Under the pieces are notes generated by a model that worked only from the letters and a program-made list of their open reading frames with translations, was not told where the DNA came from and searched no databases. From the UHGV virus genome UHGV-1369968: DNA of 49,084 nt; one strand, given 5' to 3'. This stretch comes from a virus. Positions 2,209-47,816 of the stretch are shown piece after piece (the stretch's first letter is position 1; every line of letters begins with the position of its first letter). The position numbers and the translations under genes are program-made.

Positions 2209-2420
2209 TTATTGTTGTTTCTACGTCATCACTATAGCCACACCCTCAATCTACGTCAACACTTTATGATAAAATTAAACCAACAACACTCACCCCGCGC
2301 TGTTCCGTCCTGAAAAACGTAAGGCGGCGAAATTGGATATAGCAATCGGCGTTATCGTCATAGCGTTTTCGCTGGTTCAGGTGTACAGATGCTGGAAGTT
2401 CATCATTCGGAGAATAATTA

Positions 2421-2708
2421 ATGAGAGACGCGCTTCAGCACGCCGCAAACCAGATAATTAGTGGCACTGTCGGCCAGGTAATCGACAAAGCCGGTTATAC
2501 ATCCATCGGCACGGGTCTTGGCCTGAAGGTGGCAGAGCAGACGCCGGTCGCACAATCATACATTGCCTCAATGATCCCCCATTCGATTACCGAGTGGGCA
2601 GCGGTAGCCTCTATACTTGGCGCGTTGTCACTGGTGGCAAAAAACCTTTTTGAGATGTGGTGGAAGATTCGGGAGAGCAAAAAGAATGGCAGCACCGACA
2701 GCAAGTGA
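2421..2708 (+). CDS. hypothetical protein with a hydrophobic segment
   Basis: First gene after a divergent promoter region. One probable TM ('AAVASILGALSLVAKNLF'). Confidence 0.4.
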   Translation: MRDALQHAANQIISGTVGQVIDKAGYTSIGTGLGLKVAEQTPVAQSYIASMIPHSITEWAAVASILGALSLVAKNLFEMWWKIRESKKNGSTDSK

Positions 2709-3078
2709 ACTCGTCGCCGCCATGGCGTCAAGAGGCGTAACTATCACCACGGCAGACGCAACGGGAATCCTGTGTCTGGTAGAGAGCATCACAGAGTGTC
2801 TTGAGCTTAATTACCCTGAAGATACATGCAGGCAGGATGCAATTCTGCTATGGGCATCTATCCTGATCGCCTCAAATACAGCTGGGAGATACATCACCAG
2901 CCACCGGGCGCCATCTGGTGCATCGCAGTCATTTGGCTATGGCAGCAAGCCGTGGATGGCCCTTTACAATCAGATGAAACTACTCGATACGGCAGACTGC
3001 ACAGGCGACCTTGTGGAAGAGCCTGATGGGGCAGCAAAGCCGTGGTTTCGGGTTGTCACCGGGAGTAAGTGCAGATGA
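2686..3078 (+). CDS. hypothetical protein, possibly a head-tail adaptor
   Basis: Internal ATG at 2686 ('MAAPTASELV') overlapping the upstream stop. Assigned by its position ahead of the head-closure and tail genes, with no motif support. Confidence 0.35.
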   Translation: MAAPTASELVAAMASRGVTITTADATGILCLVESITECLELNYPEDTCRQDAILLWASILIASNTAGRYITSHRAPSGASQSFGYGSKPWMALYNQMKLLDTADCTGDLVEEPDGAAKPWFRVVTGSKCR

Positions 3079-3196
3079 AAAGGTCAACATTAACTGTAAA
3101 TATCGCAATCCGTAAATGGTGCATGCCGCTGCTGGTTATTCTGGTATTGCTGCGCCTTCCTGTTCCGCGCTGGATTTATACTCTTGAGGCCGCGCC

Positions 3197-3541
3197 ATGT
3201 CAGCAATAGCGAGATGGAGCTATACGCAGCCATGCACAATCTGGCGGCTTACTGGCAAGGATAAGTATGGCAAACCAACATTTGCCGCTCCAGAGTCCAT
3301 CATGTGTGATTATGGCTTCGATAAGAATCTGACCACTGGCACGGCAGGCAATGAGATTGCACAGAAAAACACATTCTGGACGGAATACCAGAATGCGTCT
3401 GTTGGCGACTTCATCATGCTTGGCACCATTACCAGTGCTGACCCTCTGGCCGCTGGAGCTGACCAGATTAGAAACGTCGTGAATTACGGCAATACGCTGG
3501 ACCGCAACGACCTGCCTGATTTTGCGCTGGTAACGGGGTAA
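3197..3541 (+). CDS. putative head-closure / head-tail joining protein
   Basis: About 114 aa, and its position and size are typical of HK97 gp9 / SPP1 gp16-like head-closure proteins. Weak assignment. Confidence 0.4.
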   Translation: MSAIARWSYTQPCTIWRLTGKDKYGKPTFAAPESIMCDYGFDKNLTTGTAGNEIAQKNTFWTEYQNASVGDFIMLGTITSADPLAAGADQIRNVVNYGNTLDRNDLPDFALVTG

Positions 3542-3544
3542 TGT

Positions 3545-4012
3545 ATGGCTGCCAAAATGCGAGGTATCCAGCAGGCGATTAAGCGCACTCAGCAGATAGT
3601 CGGCGAGATTACTGGCGAGAAGGCTGTGCGGGCTATAAAGAGCGCCAACTTTATTATCCGCACTGAGGCGGCCAGCATGACGCCTGTTGATACATCCAAC
3701 CTCATAAACAGTCAATATGACACTGTTGAGGTGAATGGAACCCGTATAACCGGGAAGATAGGGTATACAGCAAAATACGCCCTGTACGTGCACAATGCGC
3801 CAGGTACGCTAAAGGGACAGCCTCGCGCCCACTTTGGCAAGACAAGTAACCGCTCTGAATTCGGGCCGCAGCAGGTCAGGGAGTTTGGTGGAGGTTCGTT
3901 ACAGGGAAACTATTGGGACCCTAGCGGCGAGCCTAAATTCCTTCTCAAGGCTGGCGAAAACACACGCGAGCTTGTCGATCAGGTAATTAAAAAAGAGATG
4001 ACGCTAAAATGA
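3545..4012 (+). CDS. putative tail component (HK97 gp10-like)
   Basis: 155 aa following the head-closure gene, followed by an overlapping start (ATGA). Order is consistent with HK97 gp10/gp11 modules. Confidence 0.45.
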   Translation: MAAKMRGIQQAIKRTQQIVGEITGEKAVRAIKSANFIIRTEAASMTPVDTSNLINSQYDTVEVNGTRITGKIGYTAKYALYVHNAPGTLKGQPRAHFGKTSNRSEFGPQQVREFGGGSLQGNYWDPSGEPKFLLKAGENTRELVDQVIKKEMTLK

Positions 4013-4392: not shown

Positions 4393-4396
4393 AAAA

Positions 4397-4422
4397 GGCC
4401 GCTGATGCGCGGCTTTTAATAG
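4397..4422 (+). terminator. rho-independent terminator
   Basis: GGCCGC-tgat-GCGCGGC hairpin followed by a TTTT run. Confidence 0.6.
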
Positions 4423-4617
4423 TCATTACTACATAATAAATAATCAATGGCATCGCCAAGAGATTCGAATCTGGCATCATATCTCCCGGCAGAATTTGCA
4501 ACAATATACCACTTCCCGACCTTTGATATACCAGCAACCCTGCTGTTATTTTGGTCAGCTATGCGCCAGTAATCATCGTGGATTTTTTTGGATTTGTATC
4601 ATTGCGCTCACCGAAGA

Positions 4618-4694
4618 TGGTTCCCGCGACAGGATTCGAACCTGTAATCATCAGATTATGAGTCGGGTGCTTTAACCAGTTAAGCTAAACGGGA
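4618..4694 (-). tRNA. tRNA with CAT anticodon (Met or Ile2), non-canonical stems
   Basis: Minus-strand read TTCCCGTTTAGCTTAACTGGTTAAAGCACCCGACTCATAATCTGATGATTACAGGTTCGAATCCTGTCGCGGGAACCA. It has a canonical T-arm (ACAGG TTCGAAT CCTGT), a GCTT/AAGC D-stem and a CUCAUAA anticodon loop. The anticodon and acceptor stems carry mismatches, so it may be degenerate. Confidence 0.55.
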
Positions 4695-4697
4695 ATT

Positions 4698-4774
4698 TGG
4701 TGCACCATACTGGATTCGAACCAGTTACCGATTGCTTAGAAGGCAATTGCTCTATCCTGATGAGCTAATGGTGC
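4698..4774 (-). tRNA. tRNA-Arg (anticodon TCT)
   Basis: Minus-strand read GCACCATTAGCTCATCAGGATAGAGCAATTGCCTTCTAAGCAATCGGTAACTGGTTCGAATCCAGTATGGTGCACCA. All four stems are perfect, the anticodon loop is CUUCUAA, and CCA is encoded. Confidence 0.85.
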
Positions 4775-4780
4775 TGAATG

Positions 4781-4868
4781 TGGCGGATAGTACAGGATTC
4801 GAACCTGTGAACCGTTTCCGGTTTATCGGTTAGCAACCGACTGCTTTCGGCCTCTCAGCCAACTATCC
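4781..4868 (-). tRNA. tRNA-Ser (anticodon GCT), type II with long variable arm
   Basis: Acceptor GGATAGT/ACTATCC, anticodon stem GTCGG/CCGAT with loop UUGCUAA, variable arm ACCG-GAAA-CGGT, T-arm ACAGG TTCGAAT CCTGT, and CCA encoded. Confidence 0.8.
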
Positions 4869-5376
4869 GTATGTGCGCCGCTTCAATCGTGAAGCTGGTG
4901 CCAGAATAACATATCCAAGATAGGTTACTTAGCATTGCAGTTCAGAGGATATCAGTTCGACGACTTTAGGGTGATCAGCCCATTTCCTTTTTTGTGTTGT
5001 GGTGGCCGGTGCTGATCTCCGGCTTTCTCTGGCATTACACGTACCCAAGACTATTCTCCAGAGATAGCGCTGTCCTCATCAAGGGGTGCCGTCTCTAACG
5101 TATCAGCCTACGCATTCACCACAACGGAAAGAGCACTGCACTTTGCTTCGTACTCCGTGGCAATCAAGTCCACCATGTAAACCTGCAATGCTCTTACCTG
5201 TTGTGTGCCCATTATTAATCACACCGGGCCAGTGCGCCGAATTCATTGACAAGGAGTCGGAAGACCTTGCTGGTGTTTAGCCGTTAGGCTACTGCCAGAT
5301 ACATTTCTTCGTTTGCATTTATCTTTGTGGTCAGTTTCTAAAAACCCGCAAAGTCGCACCGAAAATTATCTGCCAT

Positions 5377-5420
5377 TTAATCTACACCACCAATCAAAAC
5401 CTGTCAACATGATATAATGC
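5377..5420 (+). promoter_or_regulatory. promoter for the major tail gene: motif copy TTAATCTACACCA plus extended -10 TGaTATAAT
   Basis: TGATATAAT at 5409-5417, about 35 nt upstream of an AGAGGA RBS and the ATG at 5453. A motif-like copy lies at 5377-5389. Confidence 0.5.
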
Positions 5421-7135: not shown

Positions 7136-7232
7136 ATGTCAAACCCTCAATCACCTTATGCTTTCAATCTACGTCAGTCTTGCGCCCCCTGTCAATGGTA
7201 TAATTACGTCATTATGAAAACAGGATTTAGAC

Positions 7233-10865: not shown

Positions 10866-10890
10866 AAAAGCCCCTTACGGGGCTTCTTTC
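10866..10890. terminator. bidirectional rho-independent terminator
   Basis: AAAAAAGCCCCTTACGGGGCTTCTTTC. Confidence 0.75.
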
Positions 10891-11555
10891 ATTATCTCAT
10901 TCATAAGTTCTGGTGAATATTTAAGCCACTCCGTTGCGCCGTTAAAGCCTTTAAAACCACTGGATTCGTATTTATTATGATAATAATTTTCAATTTTACG
11001 AGCCTTAACTCCATCTGTTTTTATTTTATGTATGAGATCGAAATCAAATGGAGTAACTACCTTCAAGTGCCTGACCCTATTTTTTATATCCTTTGTAACG
11101 CCAACTTTTATCGAGCCTTCTCCCATCAAGAAGTACACAAAAGAAACTCTGTTTCTATCAAACCCCCTAACTGCGCAAGATGGGCATCCTTGTCCAGATG
11201 TGTGCGCAGATGGAGTCTGCTTGAAATCACCATGCTTCATGCATGTTATTGTCACAGGTGTGTGGTTATTTTTATATTTAACATTCTTATAACCATATTT
11301 ATCCCCATGGATAGAAATTGCCTTGCTGATAAATCCAGAGGAGTTCATTTTCTTCTTTCCTGAACACATGGAACAGCCAAAGCCAGCAAGGTGACTATAA
11401 GCCCTTTGCATAAACTCACCATGGTATCGGCATGTTATAGATATTTTGTCATGAATTTTGTTAAATTTTACAAGATTGTAGTCATAATTGTTGCCGTGAA
11501 CATCTTTGGCTCTAGAAATGAATTCTTCAATGGTAATCTTTGCTGGCATACACAA
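10875..11555 (-). CDS. T5orf172 (GIY-YIG-like) domain protein with duplicated Cys/His Zn-finger-like repeats; putative homing endonuclease
   Basis: 'VSFVYFLMGEGSIKVGVTKDIKNRVRHLKV' fits the T5orf172/MUG113 motif (YVY..G..KIG.T...R). Two repeats of 'ITC..HG.F.Q....H..G.GC..C' are present. Opposite-strand insertion in the tail operon with a GAGG RBS. Confidence 0.55.
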   Translation of the reverse strand: MCMPAKITIEEFISRAKDVHGNNYDYNLVKFNKIHDKISITCRYHGEFMQRAYSHLAGFGCSMCSGKKKMNSSGFISKAISIHGDKYGYKNVKYKNNHTPVTITCMKHGDFKQTPSAHTSGQGCPSCAVRGFDRNRVSFVYFLMGEGSIKVGVTKDIKNRVRHLKVVTPFDFDLIHKIKTDGVKARKIENYYHNKYESSGFKGFNGATEWLKYSPELMNEIMKEAP

Positions 11556-11684
11556 CCTCGTAGCAGGTTCGTAGAGTGAGGGTGCAGCAGGATGTCTACG
11601 TTCATCTTTTCGTCTGGCCGGACTAGCTGCACTGTGATTGTACCATCAACGTGCTAAAATACAACAATACAAAATGGAGAGTGC

Positions 11685-12156: not shown

Positions 12157-12626
12157 TGCCAACATTGCGTGAATACCAGTCAAAAAGGCCAAACTGGAAG
12201 CTGTATGACACCATAACCTTTTATCATTCTTCATTTGGTTATGTCAGGCTAGTTGGCAATGAGTTTTCTGATGTTGTGCTTGGTGGTCAGACTTACCAGC
12301 CAGTGCGTATGGATGTAACCAGAAGCCAGCAATCGAACACGCCGGTAATAAATGCCACGCTGAAGTTTGCGCGACTGGCTAATGACTTTAAACAATATTT
12401 AAAGTTATGGTCAGGCTCTGGACGCATTGAGCCTATCACTGCGTTATATCAGCGTTTTGACGAGACTGACAAAGATACACCATTAAAACCATATACGCTT
12501 TATGTTAACGATGTGACGCTTGATCAGTCTGATGTAACTGTCTCCATATCTATAAAAAACCCAATCAATGGTAACGTGGCAAAACTTTATGACATCACAG
12601 AATTCCCCGGATTGCGTACCGTTTGA
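12156..12626 (+). CDS. minor tail protein (gpL-like position)
   Basis: ATGA-coupled to the previous gene. Assigned by position. Confidence 0.4.
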
Positions 12627-12639
12627 CGATTTTGAATGT

Positions 12640-13047
12640 ATGATGGCCGGCAAGCCATACGTTGACAGATGCTGTCACGTTGATGCAGTTGACTGCTGGG
12701 GTCTGGTAGTGCTGTTCTATCGTATTTGTATGAATGTCAATGTTCATCATGATGATTCATATTCAAATGGCGGGGATTTTGTCACTTGTTTCAATGGAGA
12801 AGTTTCATTCTGGAAAGACACCGATCATCCAAAAATTGGCGATGTGGTGGTTGCCTATCGTGGGAGTCATCCGGTACATGTCGCGCTATGGTGGGGTCGT
12901 GATAAAATACTGCATGCGCGAGAGAAAACGGCAGTCAAGACAGACCGCCTTAAAACACTCGAAAAATTATCAACAAAATTAAGGTTCCTGACTTATGCCG
13001 GTTATTCACATTCAGAAGATGCCAGGAGTTCCAAAAGAGACGGGTAA
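12640..13047 (+). CDS. tail-associated NlpC/P60 peptidase-like protein (lambda gpK-like)
   Basis: '[11 protein letters not shown]' matches the NlpC/P60 catalytic Cys motif (DCSGLV), with downstream His residues. Start moved to ATG 12640, after the upstream stop. Confidence 0.55.
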
Positions 13048-15475
13048 TGTTCCTGCTGGCACTAATCTGTGGAGATGGCTGGAGAATTCCGGCCTTCCAT
13101 CTGACATCAGGATTGCGTTGAATGGCCGCATTTTTGGACCTGATGATGAATTATCGATATCGTTAAAACAAAACGATATTGTTAACATTTACTGCCAGCC
13201 TCGCGGCGCCATTGGCGACCTTATCAGCACGATACTCAAGCCTGTAACTAAGGTTCTTTCTTTTCTACTGCCAAAAGCATCAACGCCATCAACCAGCACT
13301 GGCGCGACGGTTGAATCACCCAACAACAGCCTGAAATCGCAAACCAATATTGCGCGAAATGGAGAGGCAAGACCTGACAACTTCGGTCAAATAAGGGCAT
13401 TCCCTGACCTGATCCAGGAATCTCTTTTTGAATACATTGACGATCTGAAGTACGTAACTGAGTTCATGAATTTTGGACTTGGGAAATACACCATTTCATC
13501 GGTTCGCTATGCGGAAACTAACCTTGGCTCCCTGCCCGGCGCCACTCATGTCATTTACAATCCTGGTGACGTGATTGGACAAATCATTGAGCCTTACCAG
13601 TTCGACGGGCTTGATGGTCAGGAGGTTCCTGGGCTTAACGAGTCAGAAGATACCCCGATAGAGACAGCGACCACGACATCTGTTACCAGTGGCGATTATG
13701 CTGGCGGTCAGCTGTTAATGGTCATACCAAAAAACACTGATTTCGATTACTTTATGGGGCTGTCTTTGCCTCACTCCGTATCATTAACAATAAATATTAC
13801 CTACAACTCGACATCCGGGCCAGTTACTGAAAATATCCAGCTTAGTGGCAACATCATTTCAGCTGAGGAAACTGAGACAGGCATCATTCCTGATATTCAG
13901 TATTTCTATAATTTCACCTTCAATAACCTGACTGGCGCAAATCTTGGCAACCTGACGGGCGCAACCATCAACAATACTTATTTCCAGATTGTGGATAATG
14001 AGGCGCTTGTTGTTGGCCCATATGTTGGAGCCGTGGAGTCTACGCAGGTATGGGTTCACGTTCAATCGGAGCTTGGGCCTACCAGTGGCACGGCTGATTA
14101 CCTGATCAAAGTATGGGCGGTTGATGATAATGGGGATGCCATTCCAGGAACTGAGGAGCAGCTTGCAGACAGTATTGACAACCCATTCAATCAGACAACC
14201 AAAACCTATTATCGCACGTATAAGTTAACTCCTGCTTATGGACTGGCTAAGTATGCTATCAGCATTGAAAGGACAAACAATTCAAACTCTGGCAACCGCG
14301 TAACTTTGCAGGCGGCGCATGCTATCAACATCCGCGAGAATGTGGTTTATCCTGATGACACCCTTGTTAAGGTTACGGTGAAGGCCACGCTTCAGCCCAC
14401 ATCAGTATCTGAGCGCAAATATAATGCGCTGATCACCCGCTGGACTATTGGATACAACAGAACAACCGGGACAGTCGACTACACGTTAACTCCATCAAGA
14501 AGTTTTGCAGATTCAGTGCTGCATAACTGGCTTATTACTGCTGGTCAGCCTGAAAGCACCATTGACATAGGCAGGCTCTACGAAATAGCTGATGCGCTGC
14601 CTGATGAGCGCCTTGGGTATTTTGATTACACATTTGACGATGAGGATAAATCGATCGGTGAACGAATTCAGACCATCTGTGATGCAGCTCGCGTAACGGT
14701 TTTTTGGGATGATGGAGTTTTATCTTTTTCAAGAGATGAGCAAAAATCAACTCCTGAAACCGTGTTCAATACCAGAAATACGAAAGCTGATAGCTATAAA
14801 ATGTCTTATGACATGACTTTGCCGGGGTCATATGATGGCGTAAGTGTTCAGTACCGCGACCCAAGTACCAACAAACAGGCTTACGTTTATTATAAAGTTG
14901 GGGCATCTGGTATCGAACCGGGAGAGCCAACTAAGCCGAAAAAATTCGACATGCTATATGTTCGAAACCTGTATCAGGCAACAGACAGGGCCATGCTTGA
15001 ATGTAATCGGCTGATGTACTCGCGGCGCGGAATGGAGATAAAGGCGCTTGCTGATGGAGAATGGGTAAACGTTGGCGATATGATCTCCGTTGTCGACATT
15101 TATGATTCAGTGCAGCAGACTGGGGTTATCCGTTCAAGGTCTGGAAACGTATTTACCACCAGTGAACAGCTCACGGCAGGAAGCGGTCTGTTTGTGGTCA
15201 TTACCGGCGCTAATGGGAATGTGTCAGAACGCCTGGCTTGTACCGTTACTGGATTGAATACATTCGAGTGCGCATTGCCATCTGATTTCGAGTTAAACAT
15301 TTTTGACGGTGTTAATGTTCAGTCAGAATCAAGATATGCCATCTCAACAGAGGTTGAGCTTGACTCAACGTTATGGACAGTCAGACAGAAAACTCCAGGC
15401 ACAGATGGCACTGTCTCTCTCACCGTAACTGAGTACAATGACGCCATGTATGCCTACACCAACCCTGTTGCATGA
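12995..15475 (+). CDS. tail tip / central fibre protein (J-like host-specificity protein)
   Basis: 826 aa following the gpK-like gene. The start overlaps the previous gene as in lambda K/I/J. An alternative start is M9 at 13019. Confidence 0.55.
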
Positions 15476-20380: not shown

Positions 20381-20420
20381 CTCACTAGTTATTGTGTAAT
20401 TGAATCTACATCAATCTACG

Positions 20421-20837
20421 TCATTCATCAAGCCCAAAATAGAATAACGTCGCTCTTTTTATCTCTTCAAGACCATAAGCAATAGCGCCAAAATGACCCT
20501 CTGCAATGGCGCACTCAAGAACCTCAATCTGCGATGGCGATACTTTTGATTTTATCTTGTCGCGGCGCTTCAACTCAATCAGGCCGCATTTATGATTAAT
20601 TCCGTTGGTTAGTATCACGTTGTCGCTTACGCCGCTCCTGACGCCCATTTTGCGGCGTTTTTCGATGAATTGCGGCCCACTCTTTGTTCCAGTCTCGTTA
20701 GGCACATGAAACCACAGAGCATCAGGAAAACGGTATTGCATCCACAGACCATACGCCATCTGGTCAGATTCCTCCCTTGGACACTCCCCGCGATAACCGC
20801 TATCAAATACCCATATTCCACTATCAAGCTGCTTCAA
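20421..20837 (-). CDS. VRR-NUC domain nuclease
   Basis: 'GVRSGVSDNVIL' plus 'CGLIELKRRD' match the PD..(D/E)xK VRR-NUC core. Immediately downstream of the SF2 helicase, as in many phages. Confidence 0.6.
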   Translation of the reverse strand: MKQLDSGIWVFDSGYRGECPREESDQMAYGLWMQYRFPDALWFHVPNETGTKSGPQFIEKRRKMGVRSGVSDNVILTNGINHKCGLIELKRRDKIKSKVSPSQIEVLECAIAEGHFGAIAYGLEEIKRATLFYFGLDE

Positions 20838-22890
20838 TTTGTTCTCCTATGAAATCCTTGCGGTGGATGATATCGCGTCCTTTATCGTTAAAACGATGCG
20901 TAATGCGCTTAGGCGCTCGGATTAACCCGGCGTAATGCATGAAAGTCTTCGCATCATGGCAGTCCATCATTTTCTTCATAATTGATTTATCTTCCAGGTG
21001 CGGAAGCAGAGCTTTCATTTTAAACATATCGCGCAGGTGCTTTGGCTTGCCTCCAAACGGATAAAACACTTCATTTGCCCAACCGGTCTTTCCATCAGCC
21101 TTTACCACCAGATAACGATAAAGAACCCCCTCAGCGTCTTTAGTCAACTCGACTTTAAAATCTTGCACATCTGTCCATTCTTTATCCGTGTAGGCTCGCT
21201 CATTAAGCGCCGCATTAGGGTCGCGCAAAACGTGATCGCATTGACGGCAATAACGAGCTGTCGGGTCGTTCTTTGTTCCACAGCCATCATCAAAAATACG
21301 GATGCCGTGCTTGTCGAAACCACAGCGAATGAAGCTGAAAAACTCTTCGCATCGGCCATCTGGAGACGTTGAGTCTTTACCGATGCAGCGCCGTGCATAT
21401 GGGCTGTTCATAGTCTGGCATTTAGGGCATGGAACCTGCTCTCCGCTACGCTTGGCGCGCTGCGCTTCTGCTTCCTCAAGAATAGGGTCTTCATACAGAC
21501 CGCCAAGCTCGAACATGGTTCCAGTGAAGTCAAGGCAAAGATGGTTTTCTTTCACCAGACCTGCGGCAATCTGGTCTGGCTTCAATAATCGCATGCCACG
21601 GCCAAGCAACTGTGTAAGAAGCGTCAGCGACATGATTTTTCTTAGGATGACAGAAGTATCCCAATATGGGATGTTGACTCCAGTCGTCAGGCAACCGATT
21701 TGCAGCGTGTATTTTTTACGCCCGGTGGCCGCGTCTTTCAGTGCTTTCCGTCTGGCTTTCTGCCCCATATCCTCAGTTACGATTGAATAACTTCCTTCTG
21801 GCAGATATTTCGCCACATCTCTGCAATGTCGCTTTCCAGCACATGTAATTAAAACTCCGTTTCTTCCAGATGTCATGGAAATAACACTTGACATTATTTT
21901 ATCAAGCTTTTCATTTTGCTTGAGAATGCTATTTTCCATTTGCTTTAGCTGCTCAGCGGTAAAGTCCTGCACTCCGTCAACGTCACTACTGGCAAACTCA
22001 TGCAGATCGTATTGCAAGTCATCGATATCCTGCCCACCAAAGATGGTAGGAACAAGAAACCCAAGATCGACAAGGTATTTCGTGCTGATGTTGACGATTT
22101 CGTGCTTCCAGAATCCACCTTTTATTGATGTCACTCCTCTGAATGGGCTTCCGGTATAGCCAATAATTATGATGTCGTGACCGTATCTTTCGCGGCATCT
22201 GCGGTTTAACTCATTAATAATAATTCCATACTGAGAAGATGGATTCTCACTAATTACATCCTCCCAGTCAACTTGATGACACTCATCAACAAGCGCAAAT
22301 CTTGGGCAAAATTCATTCAACATGCCGCTGATTTTTTTATCGAAAAGGTTTCCAAAAAGACGCGCAACCATTGATGCGTGATTTTTCTTATCGAATTTAA
22401 AGCAGCACTCTCCGCGAACAGAAAAAGCTCCAGCAAATTTTATGCCTTTCCCTTTTATTTCTTTATCAAACAGCCCATTAATTATTGTTCCCTCCGTTCC
22501 CGCTATAAGGGGATATGCATACGCCTTACGCCCAAGAGATGCGCTAAACAGAGAGTTTTTTACGCTCAAATTCCAGAGTTCCTCCGCATCCTGCTCAATA
22601 ATTTCGCCTTGTCGCGCGATGACAAGCCCCTCCCACCCCATATCCTGAAACCGACGGGCAATCATGGCTATCATGATGGTCTTACCGGCGCCAACCGAAG
22701 CAGTTACATAACTTGGCTTTGGCTGCTTGCCAAACTTGCGGATAACCTCCGCTGTCTTTTCATATACCAGCCACTGATAGGGGCGCGGTTCAATTTCCCC
22801 GGTATGGATGCTGGCCCGCAGCTTATTCATATCCAGTTCAGCAATCATTGCATCAATTTTTTGCACTTCATCCACCTTTTTGTTGCTCAA
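20824..22890 (-). CDS. SF2 DNA helicase (DEAD/DEAH, type III res-like) with C-terminal Cys-rich Zn-binding region
   Basis: Walker A 'SVGAGKT', 'LVDECHQV' DEAH box, helicase C motifs ('GYTGSPFR'), and a C-terminal cluster CPKC..C..C..C..C. Confidence 0.8.
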   Translation of the reverse strand: MSNKKVDEVQKIDAMIAELDMNKLRASIHTGEIEPRPYQWLVYEKTAEVIRKFGKQPKPSYVTASVGAGKTIMIAMIARRFQDMGWEGLVIARQGEIIEQDAEELWNLSVKNSLFSASLGRKAYAYPLIAGTEGTIINGLFDKEIKGKGIKFAGAFSVRGECCFKFDKKNHASMVARLFGNLFDKKISGMLNEFCPRFALVDECHQVDWEDVISENPSSQYGIIINELNRRCRERYGHDIIIIGYTGSPFRGVTSIKGGFWKHEIVNISTKYLVDLGFLVPTIFGGQDIDDLQYDLHEFASSDVDGVQDFTAEQLKQMENSILKQNEKLDKIMSSVISMTSGRNGVLITCAGKRHCRDVAKYLPEGSYSIVTEDMGQKARRKALKDAATGRKKYTLQIGCLTTGVNIPYWDTSVILRKIMSLTLLTQLLGRGMRLLKPDQIAAGLVKENHLCLDFTGTMFELGGLYEDPILEEAEAQRAKRSGEQVPCPKCQTMNSPYARRCIGKDSTSPDGRCEEFFSFIRCGFDKHGIRIFDDGCGTKNDPTARYCRQCDHVLRDPNAALNERAYTDKEWTDVQDFKVELTKDAEGVLYRYLVVKADGKTGWANEVFYPFGGKPKHLRDMFKMKALLPHLEDKSIMKKMMDCHDAKTFMHYAGLIRAPKRITHRFNDKGRDIIHRKDFIGEQIEAA

Positions 22891-22940
22891 TCTACGTCAC
22901 AATAGTAGACTGAATCTACGGCAATAATCAAGGTTAAATT

Positions 22941-25866: not shown

Positions 25867-26124
25867 TTAAACCTCATACTCGGTTGCAAATGATTCGTGT
25901 GGGTTTTCTGATAGCCACTGCTTAGCTTTAAGTACGGCTGCGTTTGCCTCCTCTGCCGTTTCAAACCTGCCAAGCTCATACCTGAGTCGGTTAACAACAA
26001 TCCTGGCCCTGAAATATCCAGAGTGCTTATGGAAGTCAACCCCTCTAAACCCGGTAGATGATGGCCTTCCGCCACCGGATGATGAAAGTCTTTTTTTCTT
26101 AAGTAGCTTTCCATGTGCAGACAT
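25867..26124 (-). CDS. stand-alone AP2-domain DNA-binding protein
   Basis: 'GFRGVDFHKHSGYFRARIVVNRLRYELGRFETAEEANAA' is an AP2/ERF-type fold signature (RGV..G.W.A.I....LG.F.T.EEAA). Confidence 0.65.
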   Translation of the reverse strand: MSAHGKLLKKKRLSSSGGGRPSSTGFRGVDFHKHSGYFRARIVVNRLRYELGRFETAEEANAAVLKAKQWLSENPHESFATEYEV

Positions 26125-26194
26125 AATTTACCCTCGCTCACGACTTTTAACCATGATACCCCATAAATTACCCTCCGTAAAGCGGCCACAAACA

Positions 26195-26580
26195 AACTTT
26201 GGTTAGGGTTAAATGGGTTAACTGTGGGGAAGACCATCTTCCCCAAGATTTTTTACTGTAAGTGTATGTATTATAATAATAATAGTAGTAGTTGGGTTAA
26301 TTGGGTATATTATTATTCATATTATAGATTTTATTTTAACAATAAATTAACAAACGAATTATATGGGTTATATATAAGGGGATATGGATGAAAACATACC
26401 CTGCTGCCCCTAAATTGTTAAATTACAATATTAACATTAACTTACAGAGAAAAATCTGGGGCAATTAACCTGCCCCAGCACCTTACCCACAGGGGCAAAA
26501 TTTACCCCAGGCTGATTTATTTTCACCATCATATTGACGTAGATTGGGCGCCATCGTATAGTTACCACACCAACAACAAA
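26195..26580. repeat. AT-rich non-coding region with GGGTTA-type direct repeats and two hairpins (candidate replication origin / regulatory hub)
   Basis: GGTTAGGGTTAAATGGGTTAAC at 26201-26222, TTGGGTTAATTGGGTAT at 26292-26307 and TATGGGTTAT near 26353. Hairpin TGGGGAAG-accat-CTTCCCCA plus a T6 run at 26225-26252, and hairpin CTGGGGCA-N7-TGCCCCAG at 26456-26478. The 26250-26450 stretch is extremely AT-rich. Confidence 0.5.
26534..26562 (+). promoter_or_regulatory. sigma70-like promoter TTGACG-N17-TATAGT (motif copy in reverse orientation)
   Basis: TTGACGTAGATTG supplies the -35, and TATAGT lies at 26557-26562. It drives the rightward operon beginning about 26588. Confidence 0.55.
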
Positions 26581-26699
26581 GAGGCGATGAAGATGGAAGA
26601 TAAAAAGCAGCAAGACGAAAACGCAGGTGTTGTATTCGATGGCTACGTGGTGGATGAGCATGGCGAAGAGCTTGCTCAGTTCACTGGCGACTTCGGTTT

Positions 26700-29247: not shown

Positions 29248-29442
29248 ATGCCGCAAAAATCAAAGCAGGAGGTGTGGCAGATAGCACAGCTGGAAGCCGT
29301 AGACAACTTCATAGCATCAATCGCCAAAGCATTTCCTGATGCGATTGAGGTGGTTCACGTTCAAAGCAATAACTGTAATGTTTGGTGTTATGCGAAAACT
29401 GATGTACAATCATCTCATCAATCATCACCCACCAACCTTTAA
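29248..29442 (+). CDS. hypothetical protein
   Basis: GAGGT RBS, and it ends at the terminator. Confidence 0.35.
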   Translation: MPQKSKQEVWQIAQLEAVDNFIASIAKAFPDAIEVVHVQSNNCNVWCYAKTDVQSSHQSSPTNL

Positions 29443-29466: not shown

Positions 29467-29543
29467 GCGTTATGCGGCATGGCGTAGAATCTGATACAAT
29501 ATCCAATAGCGGAAAAATAGCGGAATATTGATAGGTTTTATCT

Positions 29544-31931: not shown

Positions 31932-31985
31932 CTCAATGACTACAATCTACGTCAACCATGAACCCACGTCAACATTTATAATAAA

Positions 31986-32276: not shown

Positions 32277-32364
32277 AAGATTTCTCCGAGAGGTTTCATT
32301 TTAATCTACGCCATGCTAGAATCTACGTCAAGGCGCATTGACATAACTACATCACCGGGGCATC

Positions 32365-32604
32365 ATGAAGGCATACTCATCTTTTTCGTGGGAGCAGAAG
32401 GAGAAAATATACTCACTCGCAAGAGCCGGCGTGTCTGATGAGGCGCTGTGCGAAAGGTACGATGTTGATGAGGCCATTCTGCTGCGCATGTATGATGAAG
32501 TGCTGTGTGAGTTGCAGCGGCGCCGTGGATACAGCGGCCTGAAGACGATTAACGATTTCTTTCGGAATGTTGAGTTAAATAACGATGAGGGTGGTGATTT
32601 ATGA
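32365..32604 (+). CDS. hypothetical protein
   Basis: First gene of the rightward island operon downstream of the motif-bearing region at 32296-32345. Confidence 0.4.
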   Translation: MKAYSSFSWEQKEKIYSLARAGVSDEALCERYDVDEAILLRMYDEVLCELQRRRGYSGLKTINDFFRNVELNNDEGGDL

Positions 32605-33603: not shown

Positions 33604-33824
33604 TGAAAGCCGTCAAAACAATCCTGTTCTGCATCATCAACCCGCACCTGATTGTGATGCTGATATTCGCTGCCATGCTTATTGGCGCAAGAAAGTCGCT
33701 TTATTATCTTTCCGATAAGCTGGATGACGCGGCGAGTTATATTCAGAATGTTGACCATAAACTCGGCGCGAAGTCGTATCCCGCATGGTTCAGATCGCTT
33801 GTTGATGATGAGGTAAATAAATGA
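33600..33824 (+). CDS. small membrane protein
   Basis: TM 'LIVMLIFAAMLIGA', with an ATGA overlap. Confidence 0.4.
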   Translation: MMKAVKTILFCIINPHLIVMLIFAAMLIGARKSLYYLSDKLDDAASYIQNVDHKLGAKSYPAWFRSLVDDEVNK

Positions 33825-34132: not shown

Positions 34133-34615
34133 ATGAATTGGAATGAAATATTTTCTTACTCCGATGGAAATCTTATATGGGAGAGGGTTAACAGGAATAG
34201 ATATAATAAGCCTGGCGATATTGCTGGCAGGCTAAACACGACAAACGGTTACTTGTATGTAAAAGTAAATCAGGAAGTGAGATCGGTTCATAACATCATA
34301 TGGGAGATGCACAACGGGAAGGTGCCTGACGATATGGAAATTGACCACATAAACCACATTAGAACAGATAACCGCATTGAAAATTTAAGGATTGTTTCTC
34401 ATCAGCAAAACGCTATGAACAGGAGCAAAACATTAAGGAACACATCGGGCGTTGTTGGCGTATCTTGGTGCAAGATAAAAGGGAAATGGTATGCGTACAT
34501 AAAGAAAGATGGAGTAATGCATAACCTTGGGAGATACACCAATTTTGAGGATGCTGCTCTGGCAAGATCGTCTGCCGAAAAGAGGCTTGGCTTCCATGAG
34601 AACCACGGCTCTTGA
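34133..34615 (+). CDS. HNH homing endonuclease with C-terminal AP2 domain
   Basis: 'EIDHINHIRTDNRIENLRIVSHQQN' is the HNH_3 motif, and 'SGVVGVSWCKIKGKWYAYIKKDGVMHNLGRYTNFEDAALA' is the AP2 motif. Inserted between the TerL island and portal. Confidence 0.8.
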   Translation: MNWNEIFSYSDGNLIWERVNRNRYNKPGDIAGRLNTTNGYLYVKVNQEVRSVHNIIWEMHNGKVPDDMEIDHINHIRTDNRIENLRIVSHQQNAMNRSKTLRNTSGVVGVSWCKIKGKWYAYIKKDGVMHNLGRYTNFEDAALARSSAEKRLGFHENHGS

Positions 34616-38531: not shown

Positions 38532-38576
38532 GTATCTACATCATCGCCTATGATTCAATCTACGTCAATATGTTTA
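38532..38576. promoter_or_regulatory. divergent control region with two motif copies (GTATCTACATCA, CAATCTACGTCAA) and TATGATAAAAT -10-like element
   Basis: Lies between divergent genes 38511(-) and 38610(+). The arrangement is identical to the 2248-2275 region. Confidence 0.5.
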
Positions 38577-38609
38577 TGATAAAATAATCTGCATCACCGG
38601 AGGTAACAA

Positions 38610-40945: not shown

Positions 40946-41127
40946 CTCACCACCTCAAATTTAATTTTCACCACCTCATCACTTGAGGCGCCATTCTCAA
41001 CGACCCATTTATATGCGTCAAACCGGTCTTCAAAGACAATCATTCTTGGCGGGGTGTCATCACTATCCCCATTAACATAAGAGACCGGGGCGCCCCTGTC
41101 GTTTATTACCGTCCATCTTTCCATCAC
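40942..41127 (-). CDS. hypothetical protein
   Basis: Coupled. Confidence 0.35.
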   Translation of the reverse strand: MMERWTVINDRGAPVSYVNGDSDDTPPRMIVFEDRFDAYKWVVENGASSDEVVKIKFEVVR

Positions 41128-41324
41128 TCATCTCTCAACGTAACTTTATTTTTCTCATCCACGCTGAAGTGCTCACGCACAAACGCATACATTTCTTCAG
41201 CGCTCCATTCCCGCATTGCTACATAGCAGTGCGCGTAATATCTGACATCTCGCAGGCTTAACGGCTGGCGCTTAGCGATAATCTCAGTCAGTACTTCCAG
41301 TGGTTCTTTGCGTTGTCTCGCCAT
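41124..41324 (-). CDS. hypothetical protein
   Basis: First gene after the 41340-41400 control region. Confidence 0.4.
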   Translation of the reverse strand: MARQRKEPLEVLTEIIAKRQPLSLRDVRYYAHCYVAMREWSAEEMYAFVREHFSVDEKNKVTLRDE

Positions 41325-41347: not shown

Positions 41348-41366
41348 CTTGACGAATCTACGTCAA
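41348..41366. promoter_or_regulatory. 18-bp inverted repeat TTGACGAATCTACGTCAA containing the recurrent motif
   Basis: TTGACG and CGTCAA are exact reverse complements separated by 6 bp. Located between divergent operons at 41324(-) and 41421(+). Confidence 0.5.
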
Positions 41367-41420
41367 TTAGTCAATACTCTGTGTTGTAGATTGTACCATA
41401 ATGATAAAAGGTGGTGTGGA

Positions 41421-41719: not shown

Positions 41720-41911
41720 ATGACTACTGATCAGGTTTACGAAAAACAATTGCTGAACAAGCTGGAAGAACTTGACCGTACTCGCGCATGGGTTGAAAGC
41801 GAATTGCGCGAGGTTCGCAACCGCATGCAACGGCAGGTTAACCGCGAAATTATTGAGTGGCGCGAAGGGCGACCACATTTCAGCAATATTGGCGAATGGG
41901 TGGCGAAATGA
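41720..41911 (+). CDS. hypothetical protein
   Basis: ATGA-coupled to the next gene. Confidence 0.4.
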   Translation: MTTDQVYEKQLLNKLEELDRTRAWVESELREVRNRMQRQVNREIIEWREGRPHFSNIGEWVAK

Positions 41912-42138
41912 AACCAATGATGAATGATGATGGGCTGCTGGAGTGTCCGTTTTGTGGTAGCGAAAATTCCATGCAGAACAAGGATGGGCAATGGCATTTT
42001 GTAGTATGCCAGGATTGCGGTAGCCGCACTGATGACTGGATGGTTGCAGCGACAGCAATCATTAAATGGAATACAAGAGGTGGGTTTGTTTATAGTAATT
42101 CTGATTACGAGGATATCAATGATGAAGTGCGATCTTAA
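41908..42138 (+). CDS. Lar-family restriction-alleviation-like Zn-ribbon protein
   Basis: 'CPFCGSE..(19)..CQDCGSRT' double CxxC in about 75 aa is typical of Lar-family proteins. Confidence 0.5.
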   Translation: MKPMMNDDGLLECPFCGSENSMQNKDGQWHFVVCQDCGSRTDDWMVAATAIIKWNTRGGFVYSNSDYEDINDEVRS

Positions 42139-42643
42139 TCATGAGGTTGTTTTGTCGTTAATCAATTATAACCCAGAGTCTGGGAAATTCACCAGAAAGA
42201 ATGGAAAGCAATGCGGCACAAAAACAACGAAGGGGTACATCCATGTGCGATTGCTTGGTAAAAAGCGTCTTGCGCATCGTTTGGCTTGGTTTTATGTCTA
42301 CGGCGAATGGCCAGAGCATGAAATTGACCATATTAACGGAGTAAAGGATGACAACAGGATATGCAATCTAAGGAAGGCAACAAGACAACAAAATGAATGG
42401 AACAAGCCGCAGCCAAGCACCAACACGTCTGGCGTCAAGGGTGTGCGGTTTATGTCAAGTAGAGGAAAATGGCGTGCTGATTGCGTGAGAAAAACACTTG
42501 GTTACTTTGACACAAAGCAAGATGCTATTAATGCGTTAATTAAGCACAGGAGTGAAAAACAAGGGGAATTCAAAAATCACGGCCATCTCTATATCGCTGA
42601 CGACTACAAACAGGATGCAATGGAGCGCGCAAATGGACTTTAA
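42119..42643 (+). CDS. HNH homing endonuclease with C-terminal AP2 domain (second copy)
   Basis: 'EIDHINGVKDDNRICNLR' is the HNH motif and 'SGVKGVRFMSSRGKWRADCVRKTLGYFDTKQDAINA' is the AP2 motif. GAGGA RBS before the ATG at 42119. Confidence 0.75.
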   Translation: MMKCDLNHEVVLSLINYNPESGKFTRKNGKQCGTKTTKGYIHVRLLGKKRLAHRLAWFYVYGEWPEHEIDHINGVKDDNRICNLRKATRQQNEWNKPQPSTNTSGVKGVRFMSSRGKWRADCVRKTLGYFDTKQDAINALIKHRSEKQGEFKNHGHLYIADDYKQDAMERANGL

Positions 42644-43103
42644 AACGCAAATACTCACCGTGATAGAGCGCTGCGGCGGTGCAACCAATGCCATGATACG
42701 CAAGCAGACTGGCATGACAAACCGAGCCAGCGTTACAGGCTATCTGATTGAGCTTGAGGGTATGGGATTTATTATTAAAGAGGAAAGCGTCAGCCATGGC
42801 AGGCGCTGCTTTAAGTATTTCCTCAATCCCGATAATACTGCGCTTGATTTGGCAATTCAGACGTATCTTGAGGCGAATCCTGGACGCAAAAGCAAGCAGA
42901 TAGCAGAGGCTGTCGGCGTCAACTACACCATCCTCAAGGCACGCATGCGCTATCTGGCAAGCATTGGTCAGGTTGACCGTGAAATGCTTCCAGGCGGCGC
43001 ATGGAAGTATTACTGGCAGGAGGTCATCCCGTTTGGCATGAGCCGTGACAGGATGATGTTTGAAAAGCTGCTTGCCGGGGCGCGTCAGTCATGTGGTCGG
43101 TAA
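42633..43103 (+). CDS. tandem winged-helix DNA-binding protein
   Basis: Two wHTH-like units ('ILTVIERCGGATNAMIRKQTGMTNRASVTGYLIELEGMGFI' and 'IQTYLEANPGRKSKQIAEAVGVNYTILKARMRYLASIGQV'). Confidence 0.45.
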   Translation: MDFKTQILTVIERCGGATNAMIRKQTGMTNRASVTGYLIELEGMGFIIKEESVSHGRRCFKYFLNPDNTALDLAIQTYLEANPGRKSKQIAEAVGVNYTILKARMRYLASIGQVDREMLPGGAWKYYWQEVIPFGMSRDRMMFEKLLAGARQSCGR

Positions 43104-45841: not shown

Positions 45842-45852
45842 GGAGCCGAACA

Positions 45853-46941
45853 ATGGAAAAGATTATCTTTACGAAAGGCTTAATCACCAACTCGCAGGTG
45901 GTTAAAGAGCAATGGCGTCACCTGACCGTTGACCGCAAGGTTTTCATCAATGGTGAAAACGCTCTGGCGAAAGAATACGGCGTGAACGCTACCGCACTGG
46001 TAACGAAAGATTACTGGCGCGAAGTGGACGACGTTACCACCCGTGTATTCCGCAACGAGTCCGGCATGGACATGATGGCCGACCTGATGACGCTGGCGAC
46101 CAACATCAACATCGGTAAGACCGTGGCAATTAGCCGCATGGCCTCCGACGCTGGTAAGGTTGTGCGCACCATCTCCGGGCAGGAACCAGAAGACCTGGAT
46201 AAAACCCGCTATTCCTACAGCGGTGATGTAATCCCGATCTTCAAAACCGGTTATGGCCGCGAGTGGCGTGAGCTGCTGGGTATGCAATCTGAAGGTTTCG
46301 ACCCGCTGATTGATGACCAGGAGAGCACCACCTTCAACCTGCGTGCAGACATGGCGGATTATCTGCTGGTAGGCGATGCAAGCCTGAACGTGAACGGCGT
46401 TTATACCGCTTACGGCATCACCAACCACCCGAACACCGTGCAACTTAACCTGAGCACCTCTGGTACTGGCGCGCTGAACATCGACCTGCAAACCGCAACT
46501 CCTGATGAAATCGTTGAGTTCTTCAACCAGGATTTCCAGGCGGTTCTGGATGCGCAGAACGTGTTCGAGCCGGTTACTCTGTGGGTATCTCCGTCTGTTC
46601 GCCGTTCCTTCAGCCGCCCGTACTCCAACGCGGCAGGCTTCAAAGGCGGCACCATTGAGGATTATATCCTCGCATTCGGCAAAACCGGCAACGTTGGCCG
46701 CATCGCGTCTATCGGCACCAACTTCAAGCTGACCGGGAACCATTTCGTCGGCTATGTGAAGAATGCGCTGTATATCCGCCCTCGCGTCGCTCAGCCGGTA
46801 TCTACCTATGCAGAGCCGCGTACCACGCCGCATGCTAACTTTAACTTCCTGACCTGGGCTGCTATGGGTTTGCAAATACGGCGCGATTATTCAGGAAAAT
46901 CAAAGGTTTTCAACGGGTATGGAACACAAACAGCGTTGTAA
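45853..46941 (+). CDS. major capsid protein (lambda gpE family)
   Basis: 362 aa with an AGGAG RBS, followed by a strong terminator. Sequence features are typical of Phage_cap_E. Confidence 0.8.
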   Translation: MEKIIFTKGLITNSQVVKEQWRHLTVDRKVFINGENALAKEYGVNATALVTKDYWREVDDVTTRVFRNESGMDMMADLMTLATNINIGKTVAISRMASDAGKVVRTISGQEPEDLDKTRYSYSGDVIPIFKTGYGREWRELLGMQSEGFDPLIDDQESTTFNLRADMADYLLVGDASLNVNGVYTAYGITNHPNTVQLNLSTSGTGALNIDLQTATPDEIVEFFNQDFQAVLDAQNVFEPVTLWVSPSVRRSFSRPYSNAAGFKGGTIEDYILAFGKTGNVGRIASIGTNFKLTGNHFVGYVKNALYIRPRVAQPVSTYAEPRTTPHANFNFLTWAAMGLQIRRDYSGKSKVFNGYGTQTAL

Positions 46942-46946
46942 TTGAT

Positions 46947-46973
46947 AAAGGGGGCGTTAGCCCCCTTCTTTAT
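46947..46973. terminator. bidirectional rho-independent terminator
   Basis: AAAGGGGGCGTTAGCCCCCTTCTTTAT. Confidence 0.75.
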
Positions 46974-47754
46974 ACCTTATCTCGCCATAAACCATCCATT
47001 GAAGCATATAGCACCACTCCCACTCTGTAATATCATCCCTTAGCCATCGGCTATTCTTTTTGAAATTGTACTCTGCGGGTTCAGCTTTAAGGTTGTACAG
47101 GCAATTAACCAGTTCTGGATGTATAAGTCCATTCTTAACAAACCAGTTCACAGGAAGAATGTGATCAATATGCCACGAACTTCTATCATCAAAATTCATC
47201 CATGGCTCCATTGTTGACTCTATATGATTAATAAATTCATCCTTTGAGTAACCAAGAACTTCATCAACGCTTGAATCAGAAAGAATGGCGCCAATCTTGA
47301 CGTCCATCCTTTCCAGAGTCTTCCTCAGCAACCTATGGTGTGGATTGTCTGTCGCCCATTGCTTTACGTTTTGCAGTGCCTTTGCGTTACCATTTTTTGA
47401 GTAATACCATTTACGATAAATCTTCCTTTTCTTCTCCAGGAACGCCTCGCGCCTCAAAGGGTCTTCTCTCATCCTTTTGCTATATTTGGAGCCATTAAGC
47501 GACCTCCTTCTCCTGTTTTCTTCCTTTGAGTAATATTTATCATATGATTTTTTCCGGCTAATGCGCTCCCTTTCCTGCCCCTCACTTGTTGCGCGCTTGG
47601 CTCTGGTGAACTCATACAAGCAATCCTTGCATCTTCCTCCACCGGCAGTAAAAAAGGTGACACAACCACATTTTGCGCATGGTATTTCAGTGCAGACAAA
47701 CTGCTTTAATCCCTGCTCTCTGGCTTTAATTGCCAGCTCTTTTCTTGTAGTCAT
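46957..47754 (-). CDS. HNH-type endonuclease with N-terminal Zn ribbon (homing endonuclease in capsid module)
   Basis: 'SWHIDHILPVNWFVKNGLIHPELVNCLYNL' fits an HNH core (H-DH..P...N....N), with an N-terminal 'CAKCGC...CKDC' ribbon. Start moved to ATG 47754 (MTTRKEL) because the 5' extension overlaps a + gene. Confidence 0.55.
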   Translation of the reverse strand: MTTRKELAIKAREQGLKQFVCTEIPCAKCGCVTFFTAGGGRCKDCLYEFTRAKRATSEGQERERISRKKSYDKYYSKEENRRRRSLNGSKYSKRMREDPLRREAFLEKKRKIYRKWYYSKNGNAKALQNVKQWATDNPHHRLLRKTLERMDVKIGAILSDSSVDEVLGYSKDEFINHIESTMEPWMNFDDRSSWHIDHILPVNWFVKNGLIHPELVNCLYNLKAEPAEYNFKKNSRWLRDDITEWEWCYMLQWMVYGEIRYKEGG

Positions 47755-47791
47755 GGTGTAATCCTTGCTGATTTGGTTTTGCCATCTTAGC

Positions 47792-47816
47792 ACATCTACA
47801 TTTGATGTGTTATAAT
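47792..47816 (+). promoter_or_regulatory. motif-like element CATCTACATTTGA abutting extended -10 TGtgTTATAAT
   Basis: Upstream of the 47846 gene. Same architecture as the other + strand promoters. Confidence 0.45.

Follow-up and report, generated by a model that had tools for sequence, protein, structure and literature searches.

A conserved box at the predicted sigma-70 promoters of a Roufvirus-like phage family: a putative operator interleaved with promoter elements

What is the function of a 12-base-pair (bp) sequence that recurs at nearly every transcription-unit start of a phage genome, in both orientations and in several positions relative to the predicted promoters? The question is raised by UHGV virus genome UHGV-1369968. 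The whole stretch analysed, 49,084 bp and hereafter called the window, is essentially the complete genome of a Roufvirus-like virulent siphophage, a Klebsiella phage with relatives among the phages of Salmonella and E. coli. The sequence, hereafter the box, has the core AATCTAC and the fuller form AATCTAC[G/A]TCAA (reverse complement TTGACGTAGATT). The initial annotation had read it either as the defining element of a promoter class or as the operator of a phage regulator. Based on promoter predictions and comparisons of related phages, combined with protein searches, we propose that the box serves as operator for a regulator that binds DNA sequence-specifically and acts at essentially all sigma-70 promoters of the phage family, a reading to which we assign a probability of about 0.5.

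The box and the predicted sigma-70 promoters

As judged from a rough gene map and the annotations of relatives, gene blocks in the window alternate by strand and are separated by nine divergent (-/+) gaps. The minus strand carries most of the replication, recombination and small unknown genes, the plus strand most of the structural and lysis genes. Clear copies of the box are present in eight of the nine gaps and at four other operon starts, in agreement with the initial claim that it marks nearly every transcription-unit start. The exact form AATCTACGTCAA occurs six times, at 2248, 26534(-), 31944, 32320, 38557 and 41355 (0.00 expected from 100 shuffles), and 18 copies are found with at most two mismatches, compared to 3.3 expected. 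The core TCTACRTCA is present 12 times in intergenic DNA, which makes up 4,539 of the 49,084 bp (9%), and never in the approximately 44.5 kilobases (kb) of coding sequence (Fisher p=4e-13), upholding the intergenic restriction proposed earlier. Intergenic enrichment is likewise detected in the phages VLCpiS13f, C1 and IME207. A lone one-mismatch copy within an open reading frame (ORF), AATCTTCGTCAA at 47875-47886 in the small ORF 47846-48040, is kept in VLCpiS13f and probably reflects conservation of the coding sequence rather than a functional site.

The copies listed in the initial annotation were placed correctly to within 1-2 nucleotides (nt), namely 2218/2248, 5379, 7166, 20403/20413, 22889/22913, 26534(-), 31944/31961, 32303/32320, 38533/38557, 41355 and 47792; the copy at 11593 has to be withdrawn, as it matches at 8 of 12 positions only and is indistinguishable from chance. 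Further copies are located at 41381-41392(-), 38586-38597, 29479-29490(-) and 47818-47829, and one with a 1-nt deletion at approximately 7202-7212. An Rfam scan identified three transfer RNAs (tRNAs) only and offers no RNA-family account of the box. We found no paper containing the motif string, and papers on the family, where checkable, are silent on promoters.

The box is tightly linked to promoters. The six best fully intergenic sigma-70-like promoters, as identified using a consensus scan and our own weight-matrix scan, all use it as -35 or -10: TTGACG-N17-TATAGT at 2259(-) and 26534(+), TTGACA-N17/18-TAGATT at 5407(-) and 7195(-), and TTGACG-N17-TAGATT at 31972(-) and 32331(-), i.e. the box supplies hexamers near TTGACA/TATAAT with a partner at 16-18 bp. 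The geometries previously read from the minus strand, a TTGACG -35 followed at 17 bp by TATAGT or TAGATT, correspond to these top-scoring sites of the genome, and the suggestion that the second copy near 31943 itself serves as -10 agrees with the pair 31944/31961, which forms TTGACG-N17-TAGATT. In the window, 14 of the 15 intergenic copies overlap a predicted promoter core, as compared to 26% of random intergenic positions.

The position within the promoter, in turn, is variable. When 77 copies with an intact ATCTAC core from six genomes were each compared to the best predicted promoter, 17 were classified as -35, 15 as -10, 13 as spacer-only and 21 as covering the -10/start region, with five overlapping the promoter otherwise and six lacking a predicted promoter. 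Both orientations are present, and relative to the predicted starts neither register nor orientation is fixed. Since a sigma-70 element would keep one register, this variability favors an operator over a fixed promoter element. Hence, the association with promoters claimed initially is strong, the notion of a fixed promoter element is unsupported in light of the at least four registers, and the operator option is the better supported of the two. Most promoters have two copies. The paired arrangement pointed out earlier, in which the first copy occupies the -35/spacer zone and the second the start, recurs at five promoter regions: primase/helicase, 32303/32320, 41355/41381, 47792/47818 and 2218/2248. 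We note that the box is also unlike the promoters of single-subunit phage RNA polymerases, as it is used in both orientations and as neither the annotated relatives nor Pfam scans of the window ORFs revealed an RNA polymerase gene.

Conservation across four lineages

The window is approximately 91% identical, in mosaic blocks, to the Klebsiella phages VLCpiS13f, 6991 and KpV2811, and also to 'Aeromonas' phage pIS4-A, the type of the genus Roufvirus. More distant relatives, with approximately 75-78% nucleotide identity over 13-20% of the sequence, are the E. coli phage C1 (Deseoctovirus), IME207 (Shuimuvirus) and Bas79, a BASEL phage of the Skatevirus cluster. The Roufvirus, C1, IME207 and Bas79 relatives have been united in one proposed family whose phages are strictly lytic (PMC11769527). 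A T1-like identity of the window phage was rejected, as T1 has a different layout and not a single copy of the box.

Genomes of Roufvirus, Deseoctovirus/Skatevirus, Shuimuvirus and an uncultured fourth lineage (group 4) each maintain the box at 10-14 orthologous promoter sites, and each relative carries 11-13 copies within one mismatch at orthologous places. These are found upstream of the ParB operon and connector genes, at the lysis cassette, in the gap next to a 66-amino-acid gene and in the primase-helicase gap, as a tandem pair before the gene preceding the exonuclease, and at the edge of an origin-like gap. Among 79 loci collected via the ParB-like protein, the box is present in every locus with a ParB at least 67% identical and in none of the five loci with a 44%-identical ParB; no altered repeated motif was found in the phages with the latter, where only the Chi-like CCACCAGC is enriched.

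Group 4 is represented by IMGVR_UViG_3300013022_000001, assembled as a complete genome of 46,807 bp with ten copies of the box and a rearranged module order, in which tail genes are followed by ParB and then by recombination/replication genes. In this lineage the consensus has moved to (A/T)T-ATCTACGTCAA, as both positions next to the core have changed together from (C/G)A to (A/T)T at dispersed sites. Such a concerted shift is expected if a trans-acting reader changed its specificity.

Individual regions were compared at the base level. In 65 unique versions of region A (Table 1), no change is seen in either 12-mer, in the -10 TATAGT or in the rightward TATGnTAAAAT, whereas the intervening 8-10 nt differ. 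Among the unchanged bases is the AATCTA half located in the spacer of the leftward promoter, a position for which we know of no sigma-70 contact. In region C, AATCTAC remains fixed beside an extended -10, the leftward TGnTAnAAT, that co-varies over 42 variants (TGGTACAAT, TGTTATAAT, TGTTAGAAT and TGATATAAT), whereas the 3' half of that copy varies freely; AATCTAC therefore represents the invariant core. The GTCAA part is best conserved where it doubles as -35.

These comparisons bear on the simplest alternative, a pure promoter cassette, according to which the 12-mer is a preferred -35 (TTGACG) and -10 (TAGATT) read by host sigma-70 only and repeated through module duplication or exchange between mosaic blocks. 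The use of the box by all six best promoters fits this explanation, as do the full TTGACG-N17-TAGATT promoters made by copies 17 bp apart (31944/31961 and 32303/32320), the hexamer given by 32 of the 77 copies, and a longer shared cassette, box-N5/6-TATGATAAAAT, at both 2248 and 38557. However, 34 of the 77 copies are positioned solely in the spacer or over the start and provide no full hexamer, the half unused by sigma-70 is invariant in region A while adjacent spacer bases drift, AATCTAC is fixed in four registers, and the flanking bases that changed together in group 4 are not read by sigma-70. We consider a pure promoter cassette unlikely, although no other rival fares better.

Table 1 Box copies with their predicted promoter context, and candidate box-binding proteins, in window coordinates.
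Feature	Position	Strand	Context
Box TTTCTACGTCAT	2218..2229	+	-5..+6 of leftward region A promoter; invariant in 65 unique orthologous sequences
Perfect box	2248..2259	+	Reverse complement TTGACG is -35 of leftward TTGACG-N17-TATAGT (2259..2231); same box at ~-34..-23 of rightward extended -10 promoter TGaTAAAAT (2267-2275)
Variant AATCTACACCAC	5379..5390	+	TAGATT is -10 of leftward TTGACA-N17-TAGATT (5407..5379); relatives keep AATCTACAYCACC
AATCTACGTCAG	7166..7177	+	TAGATT is -10 of leftward TTGACA-N18-TAGATT (7195..7166)
Degenerate AAT-TACGTCAT, 1-nt deletion	7202..7212	+	Directly behind extended -10 TGgTATAAT of rightward tail-operon promoter
Two overlapping direct copies, 10 bp apart, AATCTACATCAATCTACGTCAT	20403..20424	+	Inside TTGATG-N17-TAGATT (20431..20403)
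AATCTACGTCAC	22889..22900	+	Spacer (-29..-18) of primase promoter TTGCTC-N17-TAGACT; -5..+6 of opposing helicase promoter
AATCTACGGCAA	22913..22924	+	-5..+6 of primase promoter; -29..-18 of helicase promoter TTGATT-N18-TACTAT
Only reversed perfect copy	26534..26545	-	Plus-strand TTGACG-N17-TATAGT (26534-26562), predicted to drive small-gene and terminase block
Variant ATTCTACGCCAT	29479..29490	-	Plus-strand ATGGCGTAGAAT is -10 of TTTATG-N17-TAGAAT, upstream of small terminase gene
Perfect copy and AACCCACGTCAA 17 bp downstream	31944..31972	+	Jointly leftward TTGACG-N17-TAGATT
Densest cluster: AATCTACGCCAT, AATCTACGTCAA, weak TAACTACATCAC	32303..32355	+	Leftward TTGACG-N17-TAGATT; rightward extended -10 TGcTAGAAT (copies at -26..-15 and -9..+2); immediately ahead of 79-amino-acid ORF
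TATCTACATCAT, perfect AATCTACGTCAA, AATCTGCATCAC	38533..38597	+	Lysis-cassette divergent region; leftward TTGACG-N17-GATGAT; rightward extended -10 TGaTAAAAT (38577-38585)
Region C	41349..41398		-35 TTGACG abuts perfect box 41355-41366 (spacer), then -10 AATACT
Region C, inverted copy	41381-41392	-	AAT ends leftward extended -10 TGgTACAAT (41398..41390)
Variants ATCTACATTTGA (spacer) and AATCAACATCAA (-5..+6)	47792..47829	+	Promoter TTAGCA-N18-TGtTATAAT
ParB/KorB-like protein	934..1749	-	Pfam HTH_ParB 4e-11, KorB 2.4e-6; PDB Spo0J 1e-11, KorB 9e-5 (8qa8)
79-amino-acid acidic ORFan	32365..32604	+	Three-helix, helix-turn-helix-like model, pLDDT (predicted local distance difference test) 81; in all 7 box-bearing genomes tested
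Tandem winged-helix protein	42633..43103	+	Family-restricted (152 records), not universal

At several of the sites listed in Table 1, the arrangement of copies is retained between genera. The primase promoter reads TTGCTC|AATCTACGTCAC-5-TAGACT-1-AATCTACGGCAA, and the helicase promoter uses both copies in mirror positions; the copy at 22889 gives neither sigma-70 hexamer. This two-copy layout is kept in C1 and IME207, and also in group 4, there with inverted copies at the kept positions. The tandem pair 20403/20413 is preserved in IME207 (38705/38715) and C1 (44703/44693), the lysis-cassette copies are orthologous in IME207 (7768/7796) and C1, and IME207 carries AATCAACATCAG at the position equivalent to 7202..7212. 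The TTGACG-N6-CGTCAA palindrome described earlier at the 41354-41366 copy is indeed present, at 41349-41366, and this is the sole box so embedded.

Some of the surrounding DNA deserves mention. The leader between the box at 2218 and the ribosome-binding site (2197-2217, AACATTTATTGTTGTT on the plus strand) is near-invariant in the 65 variants across genera, beyond what a spacer would need. The strong predicted promoter 5407..5379 is directed at three tRNA genes, a tRNA-Ser/Arg/Met cluster on the minus strand (4618-4868) approximately 510 nt downstream; the segment in-between (4869-5378) contains no convincing ORF and no Rfam match, and a leader, a small RNA or a decayed gene is conceivable. 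The 468-bp AT-rich non-coding gap at 26125-26592, beside the helicase/primase genes, harbors four GGGTTAAATGGGT-like repeats, three copies of CATAATTTACCCTC, an inverted repeat of 31 nt whose copies are 164 bp apart, and several palindromes rich in AT. By its sequence it looks like a replication origin, and a comparable gap of approximately 400 bp is present in IME207 and C1. The 368-bp gap left by the gene caller at 12627-12994 is coding, as indicated by ORF 12568-13047 and by the minor tail protein annotated in relatives, and is thus no true intergenic region. Likely homing-endonuclease genes at 10875-11549 (T5orf172/GIY-YIG-like), 34133-34615 (HNH and AP2) and 42119-42643 (HNH) are inserted in structural or regulatory blocks, and their presence varies among relatives. 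The 192-amino-acid protein encoded at 31-609 is annotated as DNA polymerase or RusA-like in relatives; in Pfam it matches only the central domain of the DNA polymerase III beta-clamp, and that weakly (E=3e-4).

Proposed mode of action and candidate box-binding proteins

We propose that the operator is interleaved with the promoter elements, such that TTGACGTAGATT would often double as -35 or -10 and elsewhere fill the spacer or cover the start. With the box occupied, whether at -35, in the spacer, at -10 or at +1, RNA polymerase would be blocked, which makes repression the default expectation: the bound protein would exclude the polymerase and shut down strong early promoters, most plausibly in shut-off or autoregulation. 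The asymmetry of the site, together with its variable spacing and orientation, suggests that the units are recognized in a monomer-like manner, as opposed to a palindromic operator of the classic dimer type. The factor is probably encoded by the phage, and could through the box coordinate the whole early and middle programme, as envisaged in the initial annotation.

The back-to-back regions of the connector and lysis operons may add a second activity. At these sites, 7-9 bp separate the end of the box from the TG of an extended -10 (TGnTAAAAT or TGnTAGAAT) without a -35-like hexamer, a distance kept in the window, VLCpiS13f, VLCpiS13d, IME207 and C1 though the intervening bases differ. With the box located approximately 8 bp upstream of a -35-less extended -10, the factor may also favor late rightward transcription, which is more speculative than repression. 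Taken to its full extent, the box would be a genome-wide bidirectional early/late switch, acting as -35 of a strong early promoter and, on the other strand, as docking site in the -35 zone of the extended -10 late promoter that lies back to back with it. An ORFan specific to the family, for instance the 79-amino-acid protein, would bind in monomer-like fashion and, possibly with the ParB/KorB-like protein, turn all early units off and redirect the host polymerase to the late units. We regard this scheme as improbable, somewhat more so than the promoter cassette.

The same geometry could alternatively be that of a positive-control box, a site for an activator or for sigma appropriation similar to the T4 MotA box (~-30), that replaces the missing -35 at extended -10 late promoters. 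From box to -10 hexamer, the distance is 10-12 bp across genera at regions A and B. The distance of 7-9 bp to the TG is not kept elsewhere, however; at the major-tail and tail-operon promoters it is 21-22 bp in the window compared to 26-31 bp in IME207/C1, and the geometry is confined to two regions. In addition, most copies cover spacer, -10 or start, where an activator could not work, and no sigma, MotA or AsiA domain was detected in the window ORFs scanned against Pfam. We consider positive control more doubtful still than the early/late switch.

Three proteins had been put forward as regulators in the initial annotation. The stand-alone AP2 protein (25867-26124) is absent from VLCpiS13f, VLCpiS13d, C1 and Bas79, all of which carry the box, and is therefore excluded; the ORF may be a remnant of a homing-endonuclease-type element. 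The case for the tandem winged-helix protein is weakened, as its gene is undetectable in the complete 46.8-kb group 4 genome and split into gp33/gp34 by an apparent frameshift in IME207 (12412-12887), which could be real inactivation or a sequencing error. Between genera the protein shows no more than 36% identity, and it is modelled as a double winged helix of generic type, MarR- or Pol III C34-like. The ParB-like protein, as judged from sequence matches, including Spo0J, ParB, Noc and KorB in the PDB, is a genuine ParB-family member with a KorB-like helix-turn-helix (HTH), and it is 68-94% identical in all four lineages and present in approximately 196 of 203 family records. However, the gene is deleted in VLCpiS13d (15149-15223), where the first 25 codons are left at 100% identity, and this viable and otherwise typical phage keeps approximately 14 boxes. 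VLCpiS13e does carry the ParB-like gene. The ParB-like protein is hence a possible but dispensable binder, and the best annotated candidate.

As none of these three obvious DNA-binding proteins is universal, small family-specific ORFans remain as candidates. With structural and replication genes set aside, the only small unknown proteins in all seven box-bearing genomes compared are the four encoded at 29248-29442, 32365-32604, 41124-41324 and 41720-41911. The most suggestive lead is the second, the 79-amino-acid protein, which on the basis of its predicted fold and gene position is a candidate box-binding factor or co-factor. It is essentially universal in the family and confined to it (206 phage records), and its gene is always first behind the densest box cluster, with three-copy clusters ahead of the orthologue in IME207 (2476/2499/2522) and group 4 (33642-33706). 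Pfam, PDB sequence, Foldseek and 1.8-billion-protein profile searches yielded no significant link to a known family: the Foldseek matches to LuxR, sigma-r4 and transposase HTH folds are non-significant, Pfam HTH_Tnp_1 is at E=0.13, and the profile search returned 11 clusters of close relatives only.

Alternatively, a conserved enterobacterial DNA-binding protein may read the box and be exploited by the phage. This would be compatible with the lack of an annotated phage DNA-binding protein that is universal among box-bearing genomes, and with cultured hosts that are all Enterobacteriaceae. The box, however, matches no enterobacterial regulator consensus known to us, and the lineage-specific flank shift better fits a co-evolving phage factor. 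Scans of bacterial genomes and viral contigs with ATCTACGTCAAN{5,35}AATCTACRTCA gave 9 and 7 matches, respectively, which are uninformative because the pattern misses the window itself. A host factor is, in our estimate, an even poorer prospect than positive control. Least probable of all is a non-transcriptional role, as ParB loading sites (centromere- or condensation-like) or as recombination hot spots for the exchange of mosaic cassettes: a true ParB-family protein is encoded beside region A and boxes do lie at the module boundaries of a highly mosaic genome, but the sites are asymmetric in contrast to the known palindromic sites of ParB, Noc and KorB, their placement within promoter cores is base-precise, and VLCpiS13d keeps its boxes without ParB.

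The operator reading itself has to accommodate several opposing observations. Approximately 40% of the copies give a sigma-70 hexamer, and promoter function alone hence explains part of the conservation; the promoter positions are predictions; for each annotated DNA-binding protein there is at least one box-bearing genome that lacks it; and the 79-amino-acid candidate is acidic, with an HTH assignment that lacks statistical support.

If the box is an operator at nearly all promoters, a single conserved element defines the promoter map of these phages, predicts a global regulator and provides a short oligonucleotide for its capture. The promoters concerned are compact, strong and perhaps repressible, and thus of use in engineering. 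Phages of the Skatevirus/Roufvirus cluster are under development for Klebsiella and Salmonella therapy, and members are included in the BASEL E. coli collection (bioRxiv 10.1101/2024.09.12.612763). The searchable papers on the cluster contain nothing on how gene expression is timed without a polymerase of their own. An early/late switch, if true, would represent a form of temporal control that has not been described in virulent siphophages relying on the host polymerase alone.

Comparison with known systems

The closest parallel is the KorA/KorB regulon of the IncP-1 plasmids RK2/RP4, likewise a mobile replicon of approximately 50-60 kb that comprises numerous divergent transcription units, with an operator of 12-13 bp placed about a dozen times on or beside promoters and with a ParB-family protein with a KorB-type HTH, here the product of 934-1749. 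KorA and KorB operators are palindromes bound by dimers, and the known ParB and Noc sites are palindromic as well. The box, in contrast, is asymmetric, occurs in both orientations and several registers, and does not have the form of a palindromic 13-16-bp KorB/ParB operator or parS site. Furthermore, the replicon is a virulent phage rather than a plasmid, and the ParB-like gene is deleted in the viable, box-keeping VLCpiS13d.

In two-operator repressible promoters of the lac, tet and LexA type, one operator occupies the spacer/-35 and another spans the start, as seen here at 22889/22913, 32303/32320, 41355/41381 and 47792/47818. The operators of such promoters are palindromes to which dimers or tetramers bind, whereas the box units are asymmetric and spaced by 10, 17, 24-26 or 30 bp. 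The T4 middle promoters, which depend on a MotA box and AsiA, share an asymmetric 9-12-bp box in the -35 zone, approximately 10-12 bp before an often extended (TGn) -10, with the connector and lysis promoters described above. They differ in that the window ORFs include no MotA/AsiA homologue by Pfam, most copies of the box are incompatible with activation, and the box also provides -35 or -10 of opposing early promoters. The p4 early/late switch of phi29 offers a functional parallel at most, in that one factor at a back-to-back region could repress an early promoter via its -35 and favor a -35-less late promoter. However, p4 binds inverted repeats upstream of the late promoter in a single region, as opposed to the dozen regions and the asymmetric box found here.

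In conclusion, comparison with these systems suggests that the box belongs to an unreported multi-copy operator regulon on a mobile replicon, one that would work most like KorA/KorB or the two-operator promoters. What sets it apart is that -35-like and -10-like hexamers are contained within the asymmetric operator, which is used in several registers.

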